From positions 27,727-91,726 of the forward strand of contig JAOAJY010000003.1 of assembly GCA_026413965.1 (NCBI GenBank): 64,000 bases of DNA, in the 5' to 3' direction. A program made the translations under genes and the position numbers. Source of the DNA: Candidatus Micrarchaeota archaeon (GTDB taxonomy: Archaea; Micrarchaeota; Micrarchaeia; Anstonellales; Anstonellaceae). This document shows positions 19,030 to 54,154 of the stretch, piece by piece; positions within the stretch are counted from its first letter, which is position 1, and each line of letters opens with the position of its first letter. The notes beneath the pieces are model-generated. The model was not told where the DNA came from. It searched no databases and worked only from the letters and a program-made list of their open reading frames with translations.

Positions 19030-19722
19030 TTGAGCAAGATAGAGATTGTGCCTGCGATACTTGCCAAAACCAAAGAAGAGTTCTACAGCAAGCTGTCCAA
19101 AGTAGCCCCTTATGTCTCGCGCGTGCAGGTTGATGTGATGGATGGGGAATTTGTGCCAAACAAGACCGTGGGGATTGGAGATATAGGCAAAATTCCTCCC
19201 CATATATTGCCTGAATACCACCTCATGGTTGAGGACCCTGTGGCATACGCTGAGGAAATAGGCAGAAGAGGGGCAGTATATGAAATCCACCTGGAAAGCT
19301 TCACCAAAGCAGGAAGAATGGGCGGCATCGGAAAAAACCCCAAGGCGCAGGATGAGCTGATGGAGGCAATCAGGAGGATAAGGAAGATGGGCGGCAGAGT
19401 GGGGCTGGCGCTCTCTCCAGACACCCCGGCAAGCCAGGCTTTCCCTTTCCTTGGCTATGTTGAGCTTGTGCTGGTGATGACCGTCTATCCAGGATTCTCA
19501 GGGCAGAAGTATATTGCGGAAATGGAGCCCAAGATGCGCCTGCTTGCAGGCAAGGGAGCGCTTGTTGAGGTTGACGGCGGAATCGAGGTTGGGACAGCAA
19601 GAAGGGCGGCTTCCTGCGGAGCGGCTCTGCTTGGCGCAGCATCGGCAATATTCTCAAAGCCTGACGCCAAGAAAGCCATAGATGAGCTTCAGGAGGATGC
19701 GCAGAAGGGGCTGCAAAGCTAA
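19030..19722 (+). CDS. rpe: Ribulose-phosphate 3-epimerase
   Basis: IVPAILA...VQVDVMDGEFVPNKT...HLMV...PGFSGQKYI...VDGGI. TTG start. Confidence 0.85.
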   Translation: MSKIEIVPAILAKTKEEFYSKLSKVAPYVSRVQVDVMDGEFVPNKTVGIGDIGKIPPHILPEYHLMVEDPVAYAEEIGRRGAVYEIHLESFTKAGRMGGIGKNPKAQDELMEAIRRIRKMGGRVGLALSPDTPASQAFPFLGYVELVLVMTVYPGFSGQKYIAEMEPKMRLLAGKGALVEVDGGIEVGTARRAASCGAALLGAASAIFSKPDAKKAIDELQEDAQKGLQS

Positions 19723-19776
19723 GCATGCTCGGATTTTAAACTTTCATGTAGGTAATTTGCTTTGGGAGGAGTGGGC

Positions 19777-20628
19777 ATGAAGCTTTCCAGCCAAAAGGAG
19801 CTTTCGCTGATGGCAAACACCATAAGGCAGGACATAATCCGCATGCTTGTCCCAGCAGCATCAGGGCACACCGCAGGGCCGCTGGGGCTTGCGGACATCT
19901 TCTCTGTGCTTTATTTCCATGAGATGAGCTACGACCCAAAAAATCCGCATTGGCCTGACAGGGACCGGCTGGTCCTCTCCAACGGGCATTGCGCCCCTGT
20001 GCTTTACGCCTCCATGGCCCGCGCAGGCTACTTTCCGATTGAAGAGACGCTGACTTTGAGAAAGCTTGGCTCGCGATTCCAAGGCCATCCAAGCAGGCAC
20101 TGGATGCCAGAGGTTGAGAATTCCTCAGGCCCTCTTGGAGAGGGGCTTGCCATAGCCTGCGGGATTGCGCTTGCAGGAAAGATGGATGGGAAAAGATGGA
20201 GAGTATATTGCGTGACTTCGGATGGCGAGCACCAGGAAGGCTCAACCTGGGAGGCTGCCATGTTTGCCGCAAAATACAAGCTTGACAATCTGGTGGCAAT
20301 ATGCGACAGGAACTACATACAGATAGACGGCAACACCGAGGATATCATGCCTCTTGGCGACCTTGCGGAAAAATACCGCGCATTCGGATGGCATGCGATA
20401 AGCATAGATGGCCATGACATTGGCGCTATAATTTCCGCTTTTGAGCAAGCCAGGGGCACAAAAGGAAAGCCAACCATGATAATTGCCTACACCACGCCAG
20501 GCAAAGGAGTGGCTGAGTTTGAGAGGAAATACGAATGGCATGGTGTTGCGCCCAACAAAGAGCAGGCGCAAAAAGCCCTTGCGCAGCTTTCTGAGGAGCG
20601 CAAGAGGATAGAAGAGGCGAAGGAATGA
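19777..20628 (+). CDS. tktN: Transketolase, N-terminal subunit
   Basis: ATG at 19777 is preceded by GGGAGGAGTGG. Motifs GHTAGPLGLADIF, SNGHCAPVLYA, GPLGEGL and TSDGEHQEGSTWEAA. Confidence 0.9.
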   Translation: MKLSSQKELSLMANTIRQDIIRMLVPAASGHTAGPLGLADIFSVLYFHEMSYDPKNPHWPDRDRLVLSNGHCAPVLYASMARAGYFPIEETLTLRKLGSRFQGHPSRHWMPEVENSSGPLGEGLAIACGIALAGKMDGKRWRVYCVTSDGEHQEGSTWEAAMFAAKYKLDNLVAICDRNYIQIDGNTEDIMPLGDLAEKYRAFGWHAISIDGHDIGAIISAFEQARGTKGKPTMIIAYTTPGKGVAEFERKYEWHGVAPNKEQAQKALAQLSEERKRIEEAKE

Positions 20629-21620
20629 GGCTGAATCCAAAAATGCATCTGCTTGACCCGCTCTCGCCTGACTTGAAAAAGGCGGCCACTCGCGAGGGCT
20701 TTGGGGCAGCGGTTGCGGAGATTGGGGACAAGGACCCTAATGTGGTCGCATTAAGCTCGGATGTGGCAGGCTCAGTGCAGCTCCATCATTTCATCAAAAA
20801 GCACCCTGGAAGATTCTTCAATGTAGGGGTTGCTGAGCAGAACCTTGCCTCGGTAGCAGCCGGGCTTGCCTACGCAGGCAAAACCCCGTTCATCGGGGCA
20901 TTCGCGGCATTCTCGCCTGGAAGAAACTGGGAGCAGATAAGGACCACAATATGCTATGGAGAGGCGAATGTGAAGATAGGGGGCTCGCACACTGGCTTGG
21001 ATGTGGGAGAAGACGGAGCCACACACCAGATGCTTGAGGACATCGCGCTCATGAGAAGCCTGCCGGGAATGCTGGTGCTCTCGCCTTGCGACTATCTTGA
21101 GGCAAAGAAGGCAACTGAGGCTGCATGGAAAACCAAAGGGCCTGCCTACATAAGATGCACGCGAGGGAAGCTGCCCATATTCACCACTGAAGAGACGCCT
21201 TTTGAGGTTGGCAAAATCAACCTATTGGTTGAAGGCGAGGATATCGCCATAGTGGCGACGGGAGACACTGTGTTTCCCTCCATTCTGGCTGCAGCCGAGC
21301 TTGAGAAGGAAGGGATATCCGCAGCTGTGGCAAACATGCACACCCTATCCCATCCTGACGAGCAGATGCTTGCAAAGCTGGCTCAAAGGTGCGGCACAAT
21401 AGTGACTGTTGAGGACCACCAGGTAAAAGGCGGGCTGGGAGGCGCAGTGTGCGAAACGCTTGCAGAGGCAAGCCCCGCAAGGGTCAGAAGGCACGGCATG
21501 CTTATGAAATTTGGGGAATCCGGCCCAGGGGCAGAGGTGATGAGAAAATATGGGCTGGACCCAAAAGGAATCGCAAATTTGGTGAGGCAGGAGCTTGGAG
21601 CCTGGAAAAAGGAGGGATAG
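20625..21620 (+). CDS. tktC: Transketolase, C-terminal subunit
   Basis: ATGA overlap with tktN. Motifs FNVGVAEQN and [26 protein letters not shown]. Confidence 0.9.
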
Positions 21621-21621
21621 C

Positions 21622-22266
21622 ATGAAAATTTTCCTGGACAGCGCTGAGGTGGAAAAGATAAGGCGGTTTGCCGCCATTGGCATGGTGGATGGAATAACCA
21701 CCAACCCCACGCTCATTTTGAAATCCGGAAGGAAGCAAAAGGAGGTTGTAAAGGAAATATGCAAAATCGTCCCAGGCCCTGTTTCTGTGGAAGGGGTGCA
21801 GGAGACTGCTGAGGGGATGGTGGAGGACGGCGAGGAGTTCGCCTCGTGGGCAAAAAATGTGGTCGTGAAGATACCGATGACCGAGGAGGGGCTGAAGGCG
21901 GTCAGAATCCTTTCAAAGAAAAAAATCAAGACCAACGTCACTTTGGTCTTTTCCCCAAGCCAGGCGCTTCTTGTGGCAAAAGCAGGAGCCACGTTCGTAT
22001 CCCCTTTTGTGGGTAGGCTGGACGACATAGGCCAGGACGGGATGGGGCTTGTTAGGCAGATTCTGCAAATCTACAGAAACTACGGATTTGGCACCCAGGT
22101 GATTGTGGCTTCGGTGAGAAGCGAGAAGCATGTTGTGCAAGCCGCAGAGGCAGGGGCGCATATTGCCACTGTCCCGCCGCAAGTTCTTGAAAGCATGTTC
22201 CGCCACCAGCTGACTGACGCTGGGATAAAGAAATTCAAGGAAGACTGGGAAGCCTCGCAAAGATAA
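21622..22266 (+). CDS. tal: Transaldolase / fructose-6-phosphate aldolase (short type)
   Basis: Start at the ATG one base after the tktC stop. [31 protein letters not shown], active-site context VVKIPMT, and SPFVGRLDD. Confidence 0.85.
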
Positions 22267-22282
22267 CGCTTTTTTAACTCAA

Positions 22283-23665
22283 ATGGTAATTTTGCTCATG
22301 AAGTGCTCAAATCCGGACAAAGCCGAGAAGATTTTCGCATATGCCCTGAAAAGAATCAAGCCTTCTGAAAAAGAGATGCAAAGGAGCTTTGGGGAGGCTG
22401 AAAAGCTCATCGGAAAGCTGCAAAGGGTGCTTCCTGAGGCTGTGGAGGTCCGACTTGCAGGCTCGCTTGCCAAAGGCACCAACCTGAAAGGCAAGAATGA
22501 ATTTGACATATTCCTCCTTTTCCCTCGCCACTACCAAAGGCACGAGCTTACGGTGATAGGCCTGTCCCATGCAAGAAGAGCATTCGCAGGAATGAGGGTG
22601 GAATCCAGGTATGCCGAGCACCCTTACCTTCAGGTCATAAGCGGAAGCTACCTGGCGGACATTGTGCCTGCATACAAGATAGAGGATGCATCAGGCAGGG
22701 GGACAGCAGTGGACCGCTCTCCCCTGCACACGGTTTTTGTGAATTCCCGCCTCAACCAGGCGCAAAAGGACCAGGTGAGGCTGCTTAAGCAATTCATGAA
22801 GAACTTCGGCATCTACGGAGCTGAGCTTAGGGTGGAGGGATTTTCTGGATACCTCTGCGAGCTTCTTGTCGCAAAATACGGCTCGCTTCTTTCTTTGATG
22901 GAAGCCGCTTCTGGCTGGAGCCATCCAGTCATCTTTGTGGACGGGGAGGGGGATGAGAAAGAGGCAAGAGAGAAGTTCACTTCTCCTTTGGTGGTGATTG
23001 ACCCGGTTGACCCAAGCAGGAATGTGGCTGCTGTGGTTGCCCAAACTTCCCTCTCAAGATTCATATTTGAGTGCAGAAGATTCCTAAAATCGCCTTCCTC
23101 CAGATTCTTCTTTTCAAAAAAGAGGATAATGGGGGCTGGTAAAATCAGAAGAGCGATAAAGGAGAGGGGCACTGAATGCCTTGCTGCCCTTTTCCCTGCC
23201 CCAAAAGCCATACCAGACATCCTCTGGCCTCAGCTTAAGAAGACCGCGCAGGCTCTTGTGCGCCTTTTGGAGGAGAATGGCTTTGGGGTGTTTGGCTATT
23301 ACCATTGGAGCGACGGGGAGGAGTGCGCCATCCTTTTTGAGCTTTCCTGCGGCAGGCTGCCATCGGTGAAAAAAGTGGTGGGCCCCTCAATCTCATTTGC
23401 GGCTGATGTGGAGGCTTTCGTCAAAAAGCACAATAGGGCGCTCAATATTCACCTTGAGCATGACAGGATAGTGGCGGTTGAGAGGAGAAAGGAATCCAGC
23501 GCAAAGCGCCTGCTTGCCGGCGCATGCAAAAACCCCAAGGGGCTGGGCGTGCCTGCATTGATGGGAAGCCAGCTTGGGTGCGCAAAAGTCCTGCCGGCAT
23601 CCTCAATCGCATCAGGAAAGAGGCTGGAATTCCTCTCGGACTACTTCTTCGCAAAAATCGCCTGA
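22283..23665 (+). CDS. cca: CCA-adding enzyme (archaeal class I tRNA nucleotidyltransferase)
   Basis: 460 aa. LAGSLAKGTNLKGKNEFDIFLLFP is the class I nucleotidyltransferase signature, followed by AEHPY and VDRSPLHT. Confidence 0.85.
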   Translation: MVILLMKCSNPDKAEKIFAYALKRIKPSEKEMQRSFGEAEKLIGKLQRVLPEAVEVRLAGSLAKGTNLKGKNEFDIFLLFPRHYQRHELTVIGLSHARRAFAGMRVESRYAEHPYLQVISGSYLADIVPAYKIEDASGRGTAVDRSPLHTVFVNSRLNQAQKDQVRLLKQFMKNFGIYGAELRVEGFSGYLCELLVAKYGSLLSLMEAASGWSHPVIFVDGEGDEKEAREKFTSPLVVIDPVDPSRNVAAVVAQTSLSRFIFECRRFLKSPSSRFFFSKKRIMGAGKIRRAIKERGTECLAALFPAPKAIPDILWPQLKKTAQALVRLLEENGFGVFGYYHWSDGEECAILFELSCGRLPSVKKVVGPSISFAADVEAFVKKHNRALNIHLEHDRIVAVERRKESSAKRLLAGACKNPKGLGVPALMGSQLGCAKVLPASSIASGKRLEFLSDYFFAKIA

Positions 23666-23731
23666 GAATGAAAGGTTTTTATAGTTTGAAATGGAAGCTG
23701 CAAGCGAGGCGATTGCGTGCAATTTGGGAAG

Positions 23732-24559
23732 ATGGCTTTTGCTTTTGTTTTGCTGGTTTCCGCATTTGGCTTGGGGCATGCGCTTGAGATGGGAAGCTGC
23801 GCGGACGGCACTCCTTATGGAAAATGCTCCACCAAAAATCCAGGGCACTATTGCACAGGAAGCCCTCCAGCCCTCCAGCTTTACACCAACCTTTGCAAAT
23901 GCGAAGCTGTGCCAGGCTGGATAACCCAAGGCACAGGTGAGCAGGCAAACTGCGTCCAGGCAAAATGCGATGATGGGACCATGAGCGGAAGCTGCACGCC
24001 CAACAAGCCCAAGGTCTGCATAGGCGGCTCTGTTTACGCAGACAACGCAAGCAAGTGCGGATGCCCGCCCAACAAGAAGGTGAGCGCCAACGGCATATTT
24101 TGCGAAAGCATCCCCTGCAAAGATGGGGAATTTACTGTTGAGGAAGGCACCTGCTCTCCAAAAAAGGCGAAAAAATGCGTGGATGGGGCCCTTGTGGACA
24201 AGGCATCGGAATGCGGCTGCCCTGCAGGGCAGACCAGAATTGGAGAAAGCTGCGCAGTGGTGTGCTCTGATGGGACAAAGGAGGGAGAATGCTCAGCCTC
24301 CAAGCCAAAAGAGTGCCTGAATGGATATCTGGTTGACAATGCGGCAAAATGCGGCTGCCCAGAGGGAAAGGCAGCCCATGGGAAATACTGTGCTGATTCA
24401 GCAGTCAGCGGCGCAGCTGGAAGCGAGCTTCTTGGCTCAGCAGGAAGCGCAGAAGGGGCTGATGAGGAGAGCAGGGGCATAAGCCCGATTTCCTGCTGCT
24501 GCCTTCCAACCGCACTGATTGGCATAGCAGGGGCATTTGCCCTCTCCAGGCGGGGATGA
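23732..24559 (+). CDS. Secreted cysteine-rich four-repeat protein with C-terminal TM anchor
   Basis: ATG at 23732 gives the signal peptide MAFAFVLLVSAFGLGHA. Four repeats of C-x-DG-T...G-x-C-[ST]-xx-[KN]-P-x-x-C...KCGCP. About 27 Cys by hand count. Ends ISCCCLPTALIGIAGAFALSRRG. Confidence 0.8.
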   Translation: MAFAFVLLVSAFGLGHALEMGSCADGTPYGKCSTKNPGHYCTGSPPALQLYTNLCKCEAVPGWITQGTGEQANCVQAKCDDGTMSGSCTPNKPKVCIGGSVYADNASKCGCPPNKKVSANGIFCESIPCKDGEFTVEEGTCSPKKAKKCVDGALVDKASECGCPAGQTRIGESCAVVCSDGTKEGECSASKPKECLNGYLVDNAAKCGCPEGKAAHGKYCADSAVSGAAGSELLGSAGSAEGADEESRGISPISCCCLPTALIGIAGAFALSRRG

Positions 24560-24777: not shown

Positions 24778-24803
24778 GTTTGGCTCTTATAGGGGGTTCA
24801 GAC

Positions 24804-25622
24804 ATGGACAAGAGATGGCTGATTGGGATCGGCATCTTGGTTCTTCTTGCCATTGCAGTTACTGCAGTTCTATTCTTTTCCGGCATGGGGAATTATCATT
24901 CTGGAATGGCTGAAGCTTACGATAGATATTATGGGACTATGAGCCGTTACTCTGCAAAATACTCTGCTTATCTGTCAACTCTTACTCCTATCTACCAAGG
25001 TTCGGCATCTAAGGAACTCCAGTTATATGTTAACTATAGATCTGTCGCTAGCTTCAATGAGTCAGAATCAACCACCGTTTATCGCACTATCAATGTGACT
25101 CAGTTTAAACCAGATTTAATTACCAGAATTTTGCTCTTCTTCAATAAGACTGAAGCTCAAGGAAAAGATCAAAACCTTAACTATGTTCTTGGCGAGAAAA
25201 TAGTGGGCCACGGCACCAACCGAGCAGTTTTTGAAGAGCAAGACTACCAAGATATACGGGAGAAAGAAAGTACACCTACTGGCACACTCGAATTAAAACA
25301 GGTTACTGTCAGGGTTTATGATGATCCGCTTTTCAAAGAGGATTATAATGTGGTAGTGAACTTTGATTTTAACCATGAGATAATGATGGCCGGCAACGAT
25401 CCATACCTTCAAGTCTCTGGAAAAACCTTTGTGCCCCTGCGCCTGTCTCGCAATTCAACGTCATTTGCCTACATAGTACCAAAAAGCGATTGGACAAACA
25501 ATATCACCCTAAGCTTTAGGGTAAGGGATTTTGATGCTGAGGAAAAGAGTGGCGGATGGCAGATCACTCAGCGCGATGAGCTGAATGTAACTTTATCTGA
25601 GTTTTTGAGCCGAGCCTCCTAA
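24804..25622 (+). CDS. Hypothetical membrane-anchored protein, atypical composition
   Basis: ATG at 24804 after AGGGGG. N-terminal TM WLIGIGILVLLAIAVTAVLFF. No family recognised. Sample 24901-25000 is 42 % GC versus 52 % for 24301-24400. Confidence 0.7.
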   Translation: MDKRWLIGIGILVLLAIAVTAVLFFSGMGNYHSGMAEAYDRYYGTMSRYSAKYSAYLSTLTPIYQGSASKELQLYVNYRSVASFNESESTTVYRTINVTQFKPDLITRILLFFNKTEAQGKDQNLNYVLGEKIVGHGTNRAVFEEQDYQDIREKESTPTGTLELKQVTVRVYDDPLFKEDYNVVVNFDFNHEIMMAGNDPYLQVSGKTFVPLRLSRNSTSFAYIVPKSDWTNNITLSFRVRDFDAEEKSGGWQITQRDELNVTLSEFLSRAS

Positions 25623-36187: not shown

Positions 36188-37645
36188 TTGAGGGCTGGGC
36201 TTGCTTTTGCAGCTTTGCTTTGTTTTGCAGGCTTTGGATTCGCAGGATTGCTTGAAGACTTCATGGCAAAAAGCTTTGAGCCTGGCATGGAGGTTGAGGC
36301 AAAGCAAATTGCTTCTGGCAGCCATTACATAATAATTCTGGATGGGAAAGAGGCCTATTTGTTTGACAATTCGGAGGGCAAGCCTGTTTATGACCGCAAA
36401 AGAATCATAGGCATCCTTGAGGAAGGCGAGAAAAAGGCTGCAGGCTATGAGGACAAGAAAAAATTGGCCATGAGCCTGCCTGCCGCAATCAATGCCGCCA
36501 AAAACAAGACTGAAGCCCAATGCATGCTTTTGACTGGCACAGACATGCACGAATGCAAAGACAAGCAGACCTGCGTGCTTGCCTGCATGTCCAACCCAAA
36601 CTGCGCAACGCCGCTTTATTCTGATGGATTCTGGGAGGCTTTGCTTGACTGGAGCAGCGCAAGGAAAAGATATGCGGAGCTTTTGGCAAAGTACCAAGAG
36701 GGGCTTGAGGATGCATTGGGGAAGCCTGAGGCGATTGATGAGAAGACGGCGATAGTTTCAGAGCTTCAAAAAATTGCCCAAAACATTTCCCAAAACCCGC
36801 TTTTTTTGAACAGGACGGATGAGGGATGCAGCGGCGCAAAAGTGGCAAGAAGGTGCTATGAGTACTGCCCAAAAATAGACTATTCTGCTTCAAGGCTGCA
36901 GGAAGGGAAAAAGAGCTTGGAGGCAATCAAGGAAATTTTGCTTTCTGCCCAAAAGCAGGCAGAAAGGGCAGATGCCATCCTCAGCCAGAGCGCCAAGCAT
37001 GACGAATACCTAGCAAGGCGCATGAAAGATTTTGCTGAGCTTAGGGTGAAGCTGGCAAACAGTGTAAGAAAAGCCAATATGACATCAAAAGAGCTTGCTT
37101 TGAAGGTGAAAGATGAGGAAGTGGCTCCTGCTTTGAAGGACCTTGAAAATTACACAGCCAAAGTCATTGAAGCTGGGGATTCTGGGAGATACCGCCAGGC
37201 TTTCAGGATGGCTGAGGAGCAGCAGAGAAAATATGACGAGCTTAGCCGAAAGATGCAAGCCGGCTTGGAGAAGCACCAGCAGGCAATTGAGAGGATAGAT
37301 AAGGCGTCTGAAAAAATCAAAAAGAGCAGCTGGCTGCTTGGGAATGAAACTTCCTCTGAGCAGCTGGCAAAGCTTGAAGCCATGAGGCAAGAGCTTCTTT
37401 CTGCCCCTGCAACCTTGCAGAAGATAGCCGAGCTTGATGCGAAAGCAGCGCAGATAGAAAATGAAGTGAACTTGGCCATTTCCCAGAAGGCAACTGAGAT
37501 AGCTTCAGGAAACGAGTCCCTGCCGCCAGAGGCATTGAAAGAAGTTGCCTCAAGGCAGTTGGCAAAAGGCGGCGGGCTTCCCTGCCTTCCTGCAATCGCG
37601 CTGGCCGCAGTGGCCCTTGTGGCTTTTGCTTCAAGAAAGGATTAG
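36188..37645 (+). CDS. Secreted coiled-coil protein with C-terminal TM anchor
   Basis: TTG start after GAGGTGA gives the signal peptide MRAGLAFAALLCFAGFGFAG. A Cys-containing N-domain is followed by a long coiled coil. Ends GGGLPCLPAIALAAVALVAFASRKD. Confidence 0.7.
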   Translation: MRAGLAFAALLCFAGFGFAGLLEDFMAKSFEPGMEVEAKQIASGSHYIIILDGKEAYLFDNSEGKPVYDRKRIIGILEEGEKKAAGYEDKKKLAMSLPAAINAAKNKTEAQCMLLTGTDMHECKDKQTCVLACMSNPNCATPLYSDGFWEALLDWSSARKRYAELLAKYQEGLEDALGKPEAIDEKTAIVSELQKIAQNISQNPLFLNRTDEGCSGAKVARRCYEYCPKIDYSASRLQEGKKSLEAIKEILLSAQKQAERADAILSQSAKHDEYLARRMKDFAELRVKLANSVRKANMTSKELALKVKDEEVAPALKDLENYTAKVIEAGDSGRYRQAFRMAEEQQRKYDELSRKMQAGLEKHQQAIERIDKASEKIKKSSWLLGNETSSEQLAKLEAMRQELLSAPATLQKIAELDAKAAQIENEVNLAISQKATEIASGNESLPPEALKEVASRQLAKGGGLPCLPAIALAAVALVAFASRKD

Positions 37646-53293: not shown

Positions 53294-54154
53294 TCAGTTG
53301 AAGGCTTTCATGACCTCGTCAAAGTTGGAGTATGGGAGCGCGCCTGCGAACACTATCCCAAATCCTGCTCCCTCAACCTCAACCACTGAAGCATCCACCC
53401 CAAGCCCAGAAAGCTTGGAGGCTATGGTTGAGAGCCTGGACTGGAGAGCCTCGCTTCTGTCTTTGGTGGAATAAGCCAAAAAGCCAGGGGTTCCCCTTAT
53501 TCCTATGCTTTCACCCTCATCCATCTGGCTTTGGACAGCTGACGCCATCTTTCCGCTGTCAAGGCAGCTGTTGAATTTTGCTGTGTCAAGCCCAATCGCA
53601 GCTGCCTTTGCCTTCAAGTCTGGCACGGACAGCTTGTTTTGCTCTGCGAACATGGCATCGTGCATCTCAAAGAACTTCCCCTGCTCTCCAGCGCACTCCG
53701 CAGCCTCGGCTGCCTTTTGGGCGTTCGGATGGAATGGAAGTGGGAAGTGCCTGAAAACGTATTTTGCTTCAGGATAGGACTTCTTAAGCTGAGCAAGTGT
53801 GGGATTGACCCTGTTGCAGAAGGGGCACTCAAAATCAGAGTATTCCACCAGCACCACTTTAGCATCAGCTTTGCCTTTGAAATAGGAATTGCTGTAATCC
53901 AGCCCTGAAACCTTTGGAGAGCCTTGCTTTGGCTCCGGCTGAGGCTGCGCCTGGGGCGAAGGCTGCGCCTGGCTTCCTCCGCTTGGGGCTGATGGAGCAG
54001 TTAGCTTCACCTTCCCTATTGCCTCCTGTATCCCAGAAGAGCCGATGTAAATGGTGGCTGAAACAAGAAGGGCTGCAAGTATGATTGCGATGCCAATTAC
54101 ATATTCCCCTTGCTCTAAGCCACGAACCGCTTTGTCTGCCTTTTCAGTCATCAT
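53294..54154 (-). CDS. Membrane-anchored DsbA/thioredoxin-like thiol:disulfide oxidoreductase
   Basis: N-terminal TM, a Pro/Gln-rich linker (QAQPSPQAQPQPEPKQ), then EYSDFECPFCNRV (CPFC active site), FRHFPL and GTPGF. Confidence 0.8.
   Translation of the reverse strand: MMTEKADKAVRGLEQGEYVIGIAIILAALLVSATIYIGSSGIQEAIGKVKLTAPSAPSGGSQAQPSPQAQPQPEPKQGSPKVSGLDYSNSYFKGKADAKVVLVEYSDFECPFCNRVNPTLAQLKKSYPEAKYVFRHFPLPFHPNAQKAAEAAECAGEQGKFFEMHDAMFAEQNKLSVPDLKAKAAAIGLDTAKFNSCLDSGKMASAVQSQMDEGESIGIRGTPGFLAYSTKDRSEALQSRLSTIASKLSGLGVDASVVEVEGAGFGIVFAGALPYSNFDEVMKAFN

Follow-up and report, generated by a model that had tools for sequence, protein, structure and literature searches.

A four-module, cysteine-rich protein of a Micrarchaeota archaeon: a predicted envelope rod with a conserved Cys-Leu-Pro tail

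The four-module gene and its product

We analysed a stretch of 64,000 nt from the genome of a Candidatus Micrarchaeota archaeon (assembly GCA_026413965.1, contig JAOAJY010000003.1, positions 27,727 to 91,726 of the forward strand), hereafter called the window, and concentrated on one cysteine-rich gene on its plus strand. An earlier reading made from the letters alone (the sequence-only reading) had proposed that the open reading frame (ORF) at 23732-24559 encodes a secreted protein built from four copies of a 'five/six-cysteine module', with about 27 cysteines in 275 aa, a signal peptide and a C-terminal anchor. The ORF is present on the plus strand, and the four module strings quoted in that reading occur letter for letter in its translation. 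The cysteine count is exactly 27 and is made up of four times six module cysteines and a CCC cluster at residues 255-257. Each module thus has six cysteines and not five, the sixth (C74, C124, C174 and C220) lying just past each of the quoted strings. Residues of the four-module protein are numbered here from ATG 23732, the start used in the earlier reading. The gene has the following features (window coordinates):

23717-24559, plus strand: whole gene with its TGA stop; the database gene call P0002 (280 aa) is 100% identical
23732-23782, plus strand: predicted signal peptide MAFAFVLLVSAFGLGHA, with MQFGK in front if the GTG start is used; hydropathy 2.26 over the first 15 residues
23795-23953, plus strand: module 1, residues 22-74, Cys 23, 32, 41, 55, 57 and 74; divergent and membrane-distal
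23963-24103, plus strand: module 2, residues 78-124, Cys 79, 88, 96, 109, 111 and 124
24044-24052, plus strand: N-glycosylation sequon N105-A-S in module 2, kept in 36 of 38 orthologs
24113-24253, plus strand: module 3, residues 128-174, Cys 129, 141, 149, 161, 163 and 174
24260-24391, plus strand: module 4, residues 177-220, Cys 178, 187, 195, 207, 209 and 220; membrane-proximal
24392-24487, plus strand: low-complexity Gly/Ser/Ala tether, residues 221-252, predicted to be disordered
24488-24556, plus strand: C-terminal element IS-CCC-LP-TALIGIAGAFALS-RRG (last 23 residues), with its three cysteines at 24494-24502

The product therefore reads as an N-terminal signal peptide, four tandem modules of 44-53 aa, a Gly/Ser/Ala tether, and CCC-LP followed by a transmembrane (TM) helix and RRG. 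A hydrophobic N-terminus and a C-terminal hydrophobic stretch that runs into RRG agree with the signal peptide and the anchor that had been proposed. Cleavage of the signal peptide probably occurs after G-H-A, before LEMGSC, and the motif ...G(M/L)A(H/F)A precedes module 1 across orthologs. Because modules, tether and a C-terminal TM segment ending in basic residues follow a signal-peptide-like N-terminus, we predict a type I topology with the modules outside the cell. The ORF yields 275 aa from ATG 23732 and 280 aa from an in-frame GTG at 23717. The GTG appears to be the likelier start, because it puts a Lys into the n-region of the signal peptide, matching the MR/MK start of the orthologs, because a GAGG (23706-23709) lies 7 nt before it, and because the database gene call agrees with it.

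We tested the repeat by comparing local alignment scores between modules with those of 500 composition-preserving shuffles. Modules 2, 3 and 4 matched each other with z = 11.8-17.0, and module 1 matched module 4 (z = 6.5) and module 2 (z = 4.0). The alignment score of module 1 with module 3 was not significant. The repeat is not a by-product of cysteine richness; all 24 module cysteines, moreover, were invariant across 38 orthologs, and the four-copy architecture stands as first described. In modules 2-4 the cysteines are spaced as C-x8-C-x7-C-x11/12-C-x-C-x10-12-C. Module 1 holds an insertion, PGxYCTG...L..Y, and a conserved VPGW, while module 4 is the best conserved of the four and the nearest to the family consensus xCxDGTxxGxCSxxKPKxCxxGxLxxNAxxCGCPxGxxxxxxxC. 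The ortholog tethers contain 23% G, 16% S and 13% A, and one or more N-x-S/T sequons occur in 34 of 38; the tether of the window copy has none.

AlphaFold, run with the 38-sequence alignment, placed residues 21-220 at a pLDDT of about 90 or more and residues 226-262 below 50. Module 4 modelled alone with an alignment of 52 modules reached pLDDT 95.4 and pTM 0.69. In this model a beta-hairpin (17-20 / 23-26) is followed by a short helix (28-31), and a small hairpin lies at the C-terminal end. The modules are thus predicted, with high confidence, to be small beta-hairpin beads. The sequence-only reading had called its repeat disulfide-knotted; a knot found no support, and the disulfides themselves are predicted.

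Clustered at 90% identity, the full-length relatives form about 100 clusters, almost all of them 273-307 aa long, and those with names come from metagenome-assembled genomes (MAGs) of Micrarchaeota, Micrarchaeia or Anstonellaceae. Full-length orthologs (E below 1e-100) occur in six of the seven genomes of the genus. In the other three genera of the family the orthologs have diverged; they measure 287-309 aa, contain 27-29 cysteines and carry the same LSCCCLP tail. A hidden Markov model (HMM) of the module, run on the genome that contains the window (770 kb, 87% complete), matched only the window ORF, which points to a single copy; paralogs within the genome were sought by this search and none was found. 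Between genomes, the four-module protein is 52-57% identical; cca reaches 60-61%, rpe 58-59%, and tkt and tal 71-75%. It appears to evolve about as slowly as cca and the housekeeping genes. With cysteines left out, conservation rose toward the membrane, from 0.61 in module 1 through 0.66 and 0.69 in modules 2 and 3 to 0.72 in module 4; it was lowest in the tether (0.51) and highest in the tail (0.79). We conclude that this is a real gene, to all appearance under purifying selection.

A viral origin was rejected, as the gene sits in housekeeping synteny and the viral contigs searched held no relatives. One 5-kb contig filed as 'Patescibacteria group bacterium' (L005, JBAZMO010000062.1) carries the Micrarchaeota ortholog, 62% identical over the whole length, and is probably a misbinned archaeal contig.

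The surroundings of the gene are as follows:

19030-23665, plus strand: rpe, tktN, tktC, tal and cca, the upstream neighbours, assigned by Pfam matches; order kept in orthologous loci
23676-23683, plus strand: TATA-box-like TTTTTATA, read from the sequence in the 51-nt spacer between cca and the gene
24780-25622, plus strand: downstream neighbour; its product of 280 aa has an N-terminal TM segment and matches nothing in Pfam

The same-strand order thpR/LigT-rpe-tktN-tktC-tal-cca-[Cys-rich gene] (window 19030-24559) is kept where the orthologs are 57% and 48% identical, and the order from thpR/LigT to the Cys-rich gene persists between genomes whose proteins are merely 48-60% identical. The box TTTTTATA may act as a promoter. 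In the orthologs the spacer after cca measures 30-55 nt, so that co-transcription of the four-module gene with cca is also possible. At the orthologous loci the downstream gene is not kept; its place is taken by a PAS histidine kinase or purD.

Identity and spread of the module

The sequence-only reading did not recognize the module as a named domain, and no Pfam-A, NCBIfam or PDB search contradicted it. A Pfam-A scan of the whole protein returned only TNFR_nem (PF25314) at E 0.01, with 16.2 bits against a cut-off of 27, and membership among the TNFR cysteine-rich domains was rejected on this score. An NCBIfam scan of the whole protein gave no match, and in relatives with up to 16 modules no Pfam model lay over the modules. 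When 52 single modules were scanned against Pfam, all matches were below threshold and most were to EGF-clan models; the best was FXa_inhibition (PF14670) at 7.5e-5 (seven modules), and EGF (PF00008) was matched by a single module at 0.0024, below the gathering threshold. Sequence searches of the PDB with whole-protein and module profiles gave nothing at E below 0.6, the best match of the module profile being epiregulin (1K36) at E 0.66. Foldseek against the PDB found no significant fold match (RSPO and TNFR chains were among the insignificant ones), a 44-residue domain giving this program little power. The EGF fold did not appear in the structure comparison of the module.

Aligned by hhalign with a hand-typed EGF alignment, the module gave a probability of 60%, a score of 21.6 and an E-value of 8.5e-5 over 28 columns, with the cysteine register shifted. 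This score beat all 200 column shuffles (maximum 18.7). The register places C2, C3, C4 and C5 of the module on C1, C2, C4 and C5 of EGF and disagrees with the predicted strands. Because of the shifted register and this misfit, we regard the module as EGF-like in its cysteine spacing and its use, and probably not as a member of the EGF family. Modules that lack C5 and C6 together exist (P0188 and P0143), which is compatible with a 5-6 pair as in the EGF pattern 1-3, 2-4, 5-6; most apparent losses of cysteine pairs are misalignments of module 1. In the literature on cysteine-rich surface proteins of Micrarchaeota and other DPANN archaea, judged mostly by titles, we found no paper that describes the module, nor did we find one that joins EGF-like domains and DPANN. 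A paper entitled 'Cysteine-rich repeats trace past HGT in eukaryotes' deals with a different repeat.

We searched 1.84 billion representative proteins with a 45-position profile of the module. At an E-value of up to 1e-3 there were 1,951 matching proteins; a cut-off of 1e-10 left 605 of them and one of 1e-30 left 116. With up to 38 copies, a protein of 7,312 aa is the richest carrier. Among the best 150 matches, three copies were present in 75 proteins and four in 41, and all six cysteines were aligned in 795 of 1,028 distinct module instances. A Pfam scan of 90 module-bearing proteins identified as partners CAP (22), transglutaminase-like domains (8, plus 2 DUF553), zf-AN1 (5) and CBS (3), and, with one or two cases each, Laminin_G_3, DUF4352, papain-like (C1) and M60 peptidases, CBM9, PA14, PKD and CARDB. 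A frequent order in the carriers is an N-terminal TM segment, then modules, then an effector domain. Since many carriers show this order, the module seems to behave as a generic extracellular stalk, usually of three or four copies between membrane anchor and effector domain, which would keep CAP, transglutaminase-like, peptidase or lectin domains at a distance from the membrane. In several proteins (P0130, P0139, P0161, P0182, P0187 and others) an AN1-type zinc finger on the cytoplasmic side is followed by a TM segment, by three modules and, at the C-terminus, by a CAP or ...W..LV.KYGI domain; these look like a DPANN transmembrane family with an intracellular zinc finger.

The whole-protein profile matched 45 of 151 genomes of the Micrarchaeota phylum. 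In a second DPANN phylum, which holds an Aenigmatarchaeota-labelled genome, the module profile matched 33 of 201 genomes, and in Patescibacteria it matched one of 301. The last figure rules out a distribution across the candidate phyla radiation (CPR). The only clear bacterial copy (L031, 2710-4590, plus strand) lies on a 205-kb Saccharibacteria-labelled contig between alaS and rpsM-rpsK-rpsD; its product of 626 aa combines a single module with an M60-like HEIGH peptidase domain, and the gene is probably a lateral acquisition by transfer from an archaeon to CPR. Tandem arrays of three or four module-bearing paralogs (about 335-460 aa) were seen at G044:C20:1700-4560, G062:C1:698300-701100 and G069:C23:24500-26100. 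They belong to another family of the same order; the lineage of the window is single-copy.

The C-terminal Cys-Leu-Pro tail

In the tail, an invariant Pro abuts a TM helix with a small-xxx-small motif, and a basic end follows. Across the 38 orthologs, P259 is invariant, C255-257 and L258 are at least 90% conserved, and the consensus reads CCCLP[TAS]A...GGFAFFRK. A similar tail was found on a second protein of the window:

36188-37645, plus strand: P0270, an unrelated protein of 485 aa with signal peptide and coiled coil, ending GGLP-C-LP-AIALAAVALVAFAS-RKD

The C-terminal end of P0270 is GGLPCLPAIALAAVALVAFASRKD. In 27 of 28 homologues, PC[LAM]P[AG], the TM segment and the basic end are kept, and the linker before the tail varies freely. 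The consensuses of the two tails align as C-L-P ... G-F-A-F ... R-K, and a joint tail HMM matched only two ORFs of the genome, the four-module protein and P0270 (E 1.9e-9 and 1.1e-5). P0270 has no Pfam or NCBIfam match; its layout resembles that of SlaB, with a globular cysteine-containing head, a long coiled coil and a C-terminal TM segment. Outside the window, a third ORF (contig C23:22478-24643, plus strand, 722 aa) ends in ...SSRFCPVAFAVFASALAIAIARR, a FCPVAF...ARR sequence whose Cys-Pro opens the TM helix; its product is a third protein with a C-terminal anchor.

We then compared the tails with known anchoring systems. Five tails scanned against NCBIfam (E up to 10) gave only Rumino_NPXTG, for one tail and with 14.1 bits against a cut-off of 23.5; neither TIGR04288 nor any other NCBIfam CTERM model was matched. 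An archaeosortase anchor was rejected: a PF09721 search (E up to 1) matched nothing in the genome, which is 87% complete, and did detect the M. jannaschii control. PGF-CTERM membership was rejected on the same result and on the lack of a PGF motif. MrtA was discarded as processing enzyme, with no NF040590 match in the genome. Reading 'LPTAL' as an LPXTG-sortase signal was rejected on sequence grounds, with no search made for a sortase gene: T-G is lacking, and no spacer separates the motif from the TM helix.

The genome has one clear CPBP/Rce1-like protease (PF02517), at C11:73679-74434 on the minus strand and outside the window, with EExxxR and FxxxH intact. Its gene lies directly upstream of a Kae1/TsaD-like gene. 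A second PF02517 match (C23:4792-4959) is below threshold and interrupted by a stop codon. Of the 151 genomes of the phylum, 106 (70%) have CPBP homologues, irrespective of the tail; the three sister genera of the family have none. As cognate enzyme of the tail, CPBP was rejected on four genomes (G001, G110, G120 and G122; 89-97% completeness) that have CCCLP orthologs and no PF02517 match. The tail is clearly under strong constraint, and the known enzyme class does not explain it. Two readings of it remain: a plain TM anchor that oligomerizes through the small-xxx-small motif, with interchain disulfides of the CCC cluster as a lock, or a signal for an unknown enzyme.

Cysteine-bearing tripartite sorting signals comprise CGP-CTERM of Thermococcales and MYXO-CTERM, for which CPBP/Rce1-like proteases are the proposed enzymes (Haft 2023, bioRxiv 10.1101/2023.06.07.544157). 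If CCC-LP were a true signal of this kind, its Cys would be lipid-modified and the TM helix cleaved, leaving a lipid-anchored rod. The likeness to CGP-CTERM and MYXO-CTERM lies in the layout. In all of them an invariant Cys followed by Pro stands directly before the TM helix, the very end is a basic cluster, the tail comes after a linker of low complexity that is rich in sequons and probably glycosylated, and the tail is common to unrelated surface proteins of one genome. The element measures 21 aa, compared with 20 aa for CGP-CTERM (bioRxiv 10.1101/2023.06.07.544157). Further support comes from the tail being the best conserved part of the protein, from PC[LAM]P and ...GFA.F-RK in 27 of 28 members of the P0270 family, and from the one CPBP/Rce1-like protease with both of its motifs. 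The tail motif, however, is C-L-P (CCCLP or PCLP) rather than C-G-P, and only two or three carriers, and thus candidate substrates, occur per genome. The tails matched no NCBIfam CTERM model, and the genome yielded neither an archaeosortase nor an MrtA match; the four tailed genomes without PF02517 argue against CPBP, and the presence of CPBP whatever the tail does not discriminate. In the sister genera, moreover, acidic residues come after the basic end (RRKKEE, KGRRKEEEE), as in an ordinary cytoplasmic stop-transfer tail. We therefore treat a Cys-modified sorting signal as a tentative possibility and the less probable outcome. It concerns the anchor only and is compatible with an envelope rod.

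Proposed role and relation to known systems

A further claim of the sequence-only reading, that the window also encodes a membrane-anchored DsbA-like oxidoreductase, was confirmed:

53294-54154, minus strand: membrane-anchored DsbA-like thiol:disulfide oxidoreductase with CPFC and an N-terminal TM segment; Pfam Thioredoxin_4 6e-25, DSBA 8.6e-18

The genome has three DsbA-like genes and an STT3/AglB homologue. Among the 151 genomes, 32 have both the module and a DsbA-like protein, 13 the module only, 19 the DsbA-like protein only and 87 neither. This co-occurrence suggests a functional link between DsbA and the module, and the protein encoded at 53294-54154 is the likely oxidant for the 12 predicted disulfides. 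The sequons make N-glycans on the four-module protein probable.

Taken together, these observations lead us to favour, by a modest degree of confidence, a constitutive cell-envelope glycoprotein: a disulfide-stapled rod of four beads, most likely a structural spacer or anchor between the membrane and an S-layer or glycocalyx. The protein would be exported by Sec and its signal peptide cleaved. Membrane-anchored DsbA-like oxidoreductases would staple each bead with three disulfides, giving a stiff four-bead rod, and AglB would put N-glycans on the N105 sequon and, in most orthologs, on the tether. CCC-LP-TM-RK would hold the rod on the membrane, either as an oligomerizing TM anchor with interchain disulfides or as a Cys-modified sorting signal. 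The four-module protein would be a stalk only, with the divergent distal module 1 as its contact surface. The earlier interpretation, a small surface repeat on a secreted and anchored protein, is supported overall. A setting for such a rod is offered by Micrarchaeum, whose S-layer protein SLP_Mh is unanchored; a second stalk protein was proposed there and the anchoring partner left open (bioRxiv 10.1101/2021.04.28.441871).

Several points weigh against the envelope rod. We have identified no partner for it, neither an S-layer protein nor a host ligand, and its role is a prediction. The module disulfides are likewise predicted. The association with DsbA-like proteins (odds ratio 11.3, Fisher p 7e-10) is uncorrected for phylogeny, and the 13 module-positive genomes mentioned above have no detectable homologue of the DsbA at 53294-54154. 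The negative fold comparison is weak evidence, given the size of the domain. Lastly, the choice of a spacer over an adhesin is carried by three observations only, namely slow evolution, single copy and the absent head domain.

The main alternative, at issue in that choice, is a host-attachment adhesin, in which the rod projects from an episymbiont and the distal module binds a host protein or glycan. Cultivated DPANN archaea, Micrarchaeota included, are contact-dependent episymbionts. Module 1, the distal one, is the most divergent and keeps the aromatics Y29 and W63. The tandem paralog arrays of other Micrarchaeota families (G044:C20, G062:C1, G069:C23) are of a kind common in adhesin families, and in some proteins the module accompanies lectin-like and PA14/GLEYA domains. 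The ortholog, however, is single-copy, evolves about as slowly as its housekeeping neighbours and has no variable tip region or head domain. We consider an adhesin unlikely, and a spacer or anchor more likely than a fast-evolving host adhesin.

A more far-reaching proposal takes the module as an uncatalogued, DPANN-wide family of extracellular domains, either an archaeal branch or an independent reinvention of the EGF-like bead with three disulfides, and CCC-LP/PC-LP as a new Cys anchoring signal whose enzyme is neither archaeosortase nor CPBP; the signal would lipid-anchor the rod and its coiled-coil partner as membrane-side stalks of the S-layer in Micrarchaeota. As a joint claim this is doubtful, and we give it little weight. 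Metal coordination by the cysteines (Zn, Fe or Cu; or a redox-active surface protein) without disulfides is very improbable: 10% Cys, a CxC in each of the modules and the CCC cluster next to the membrane speak for it, as does the frequent reading of small dark Cys-rich archaeal domains as metal binders (PMC13607799), but the protein is predicted to be exported, each module has an even number of invariant cysteines, no CxxC pairs and no conserved His, the beta-hairpin fold is confidently predicted without ligands, the module co-occurs with DsbA-like oxidoreductases, and some terminal modules lack C5 and C6 together (P0188, P0143), as if these were paired with each other.

Tandem disulfide-rich extracellular repeats are well known as a kind. 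What is new here is the module family with its size and DPANN-restricted spread, the regular use of the module as a three- or four-copy stalk, and a Cys-Leu-Pro C-terminal element common to unrelated proteins. DPANN archaea live by cell-to-cell contact, and to our knowledge almost nothing is known of their surface proteins. A named model of the module would annotate thousands of hypothetical proteins and mark them as extracellular. The stalk-only protein is small (about 200 structured residues) and so lends itself to structure determination and to the mapping of disulfides, and the Cys-Leu-Pro tail offers a testable lead on how proteins are fastened to the membrane in wall-less cells.

Among known systems, EGF-like domains (CL0001) are the closest to the module itself. 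Both measure about 40-45 aa and have six cysteines with C-x-C between the fourth and fifth; the module spacing C-x8-C-x7-C-x11-C-x-C-x10-C resembles the C-x7-C-x4-5-C-x10-13-C-x-C-x8-C of EGF. Both have a two-stranded hairpin around and after the third cysteine and a small C-terminal hairpin, as far as the module is predicted, and both occur in tandem as extracellular rods or stalks. In contrast to EGF, the module has a short helix before C-x-C as well as conserved DGT, KPK and CGCP motifs, which are absent from EGF; no Pfam EGF model reaches its gathering score on it, and it is distributed in DPANN archaea and not in eukaryotes. TNFR-type and furin-like repeats are likewise tandem six-Cys beads of about 40 aa that form a rod, and TNFR_nem (PF25314), the best single Pfam match of the whole protein, also matched nine of the 52 modules weakly.

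For the protein as a whole, a close counterpart is SlaB, the membrane-anchored S-layer stalk of Sulfolobales. The two have in common a Sec signal, an elongated ectodomain, a single C-terminal TM helix, sequons and one conserved copy per genome. The four-module protein differs in having neither a coiled coil nor beta-sandwich domains, and SlaB is not Cys-rich. Of the two tail carriers in the window, the coiled-coil protein P0270 is the more SlaB-like.

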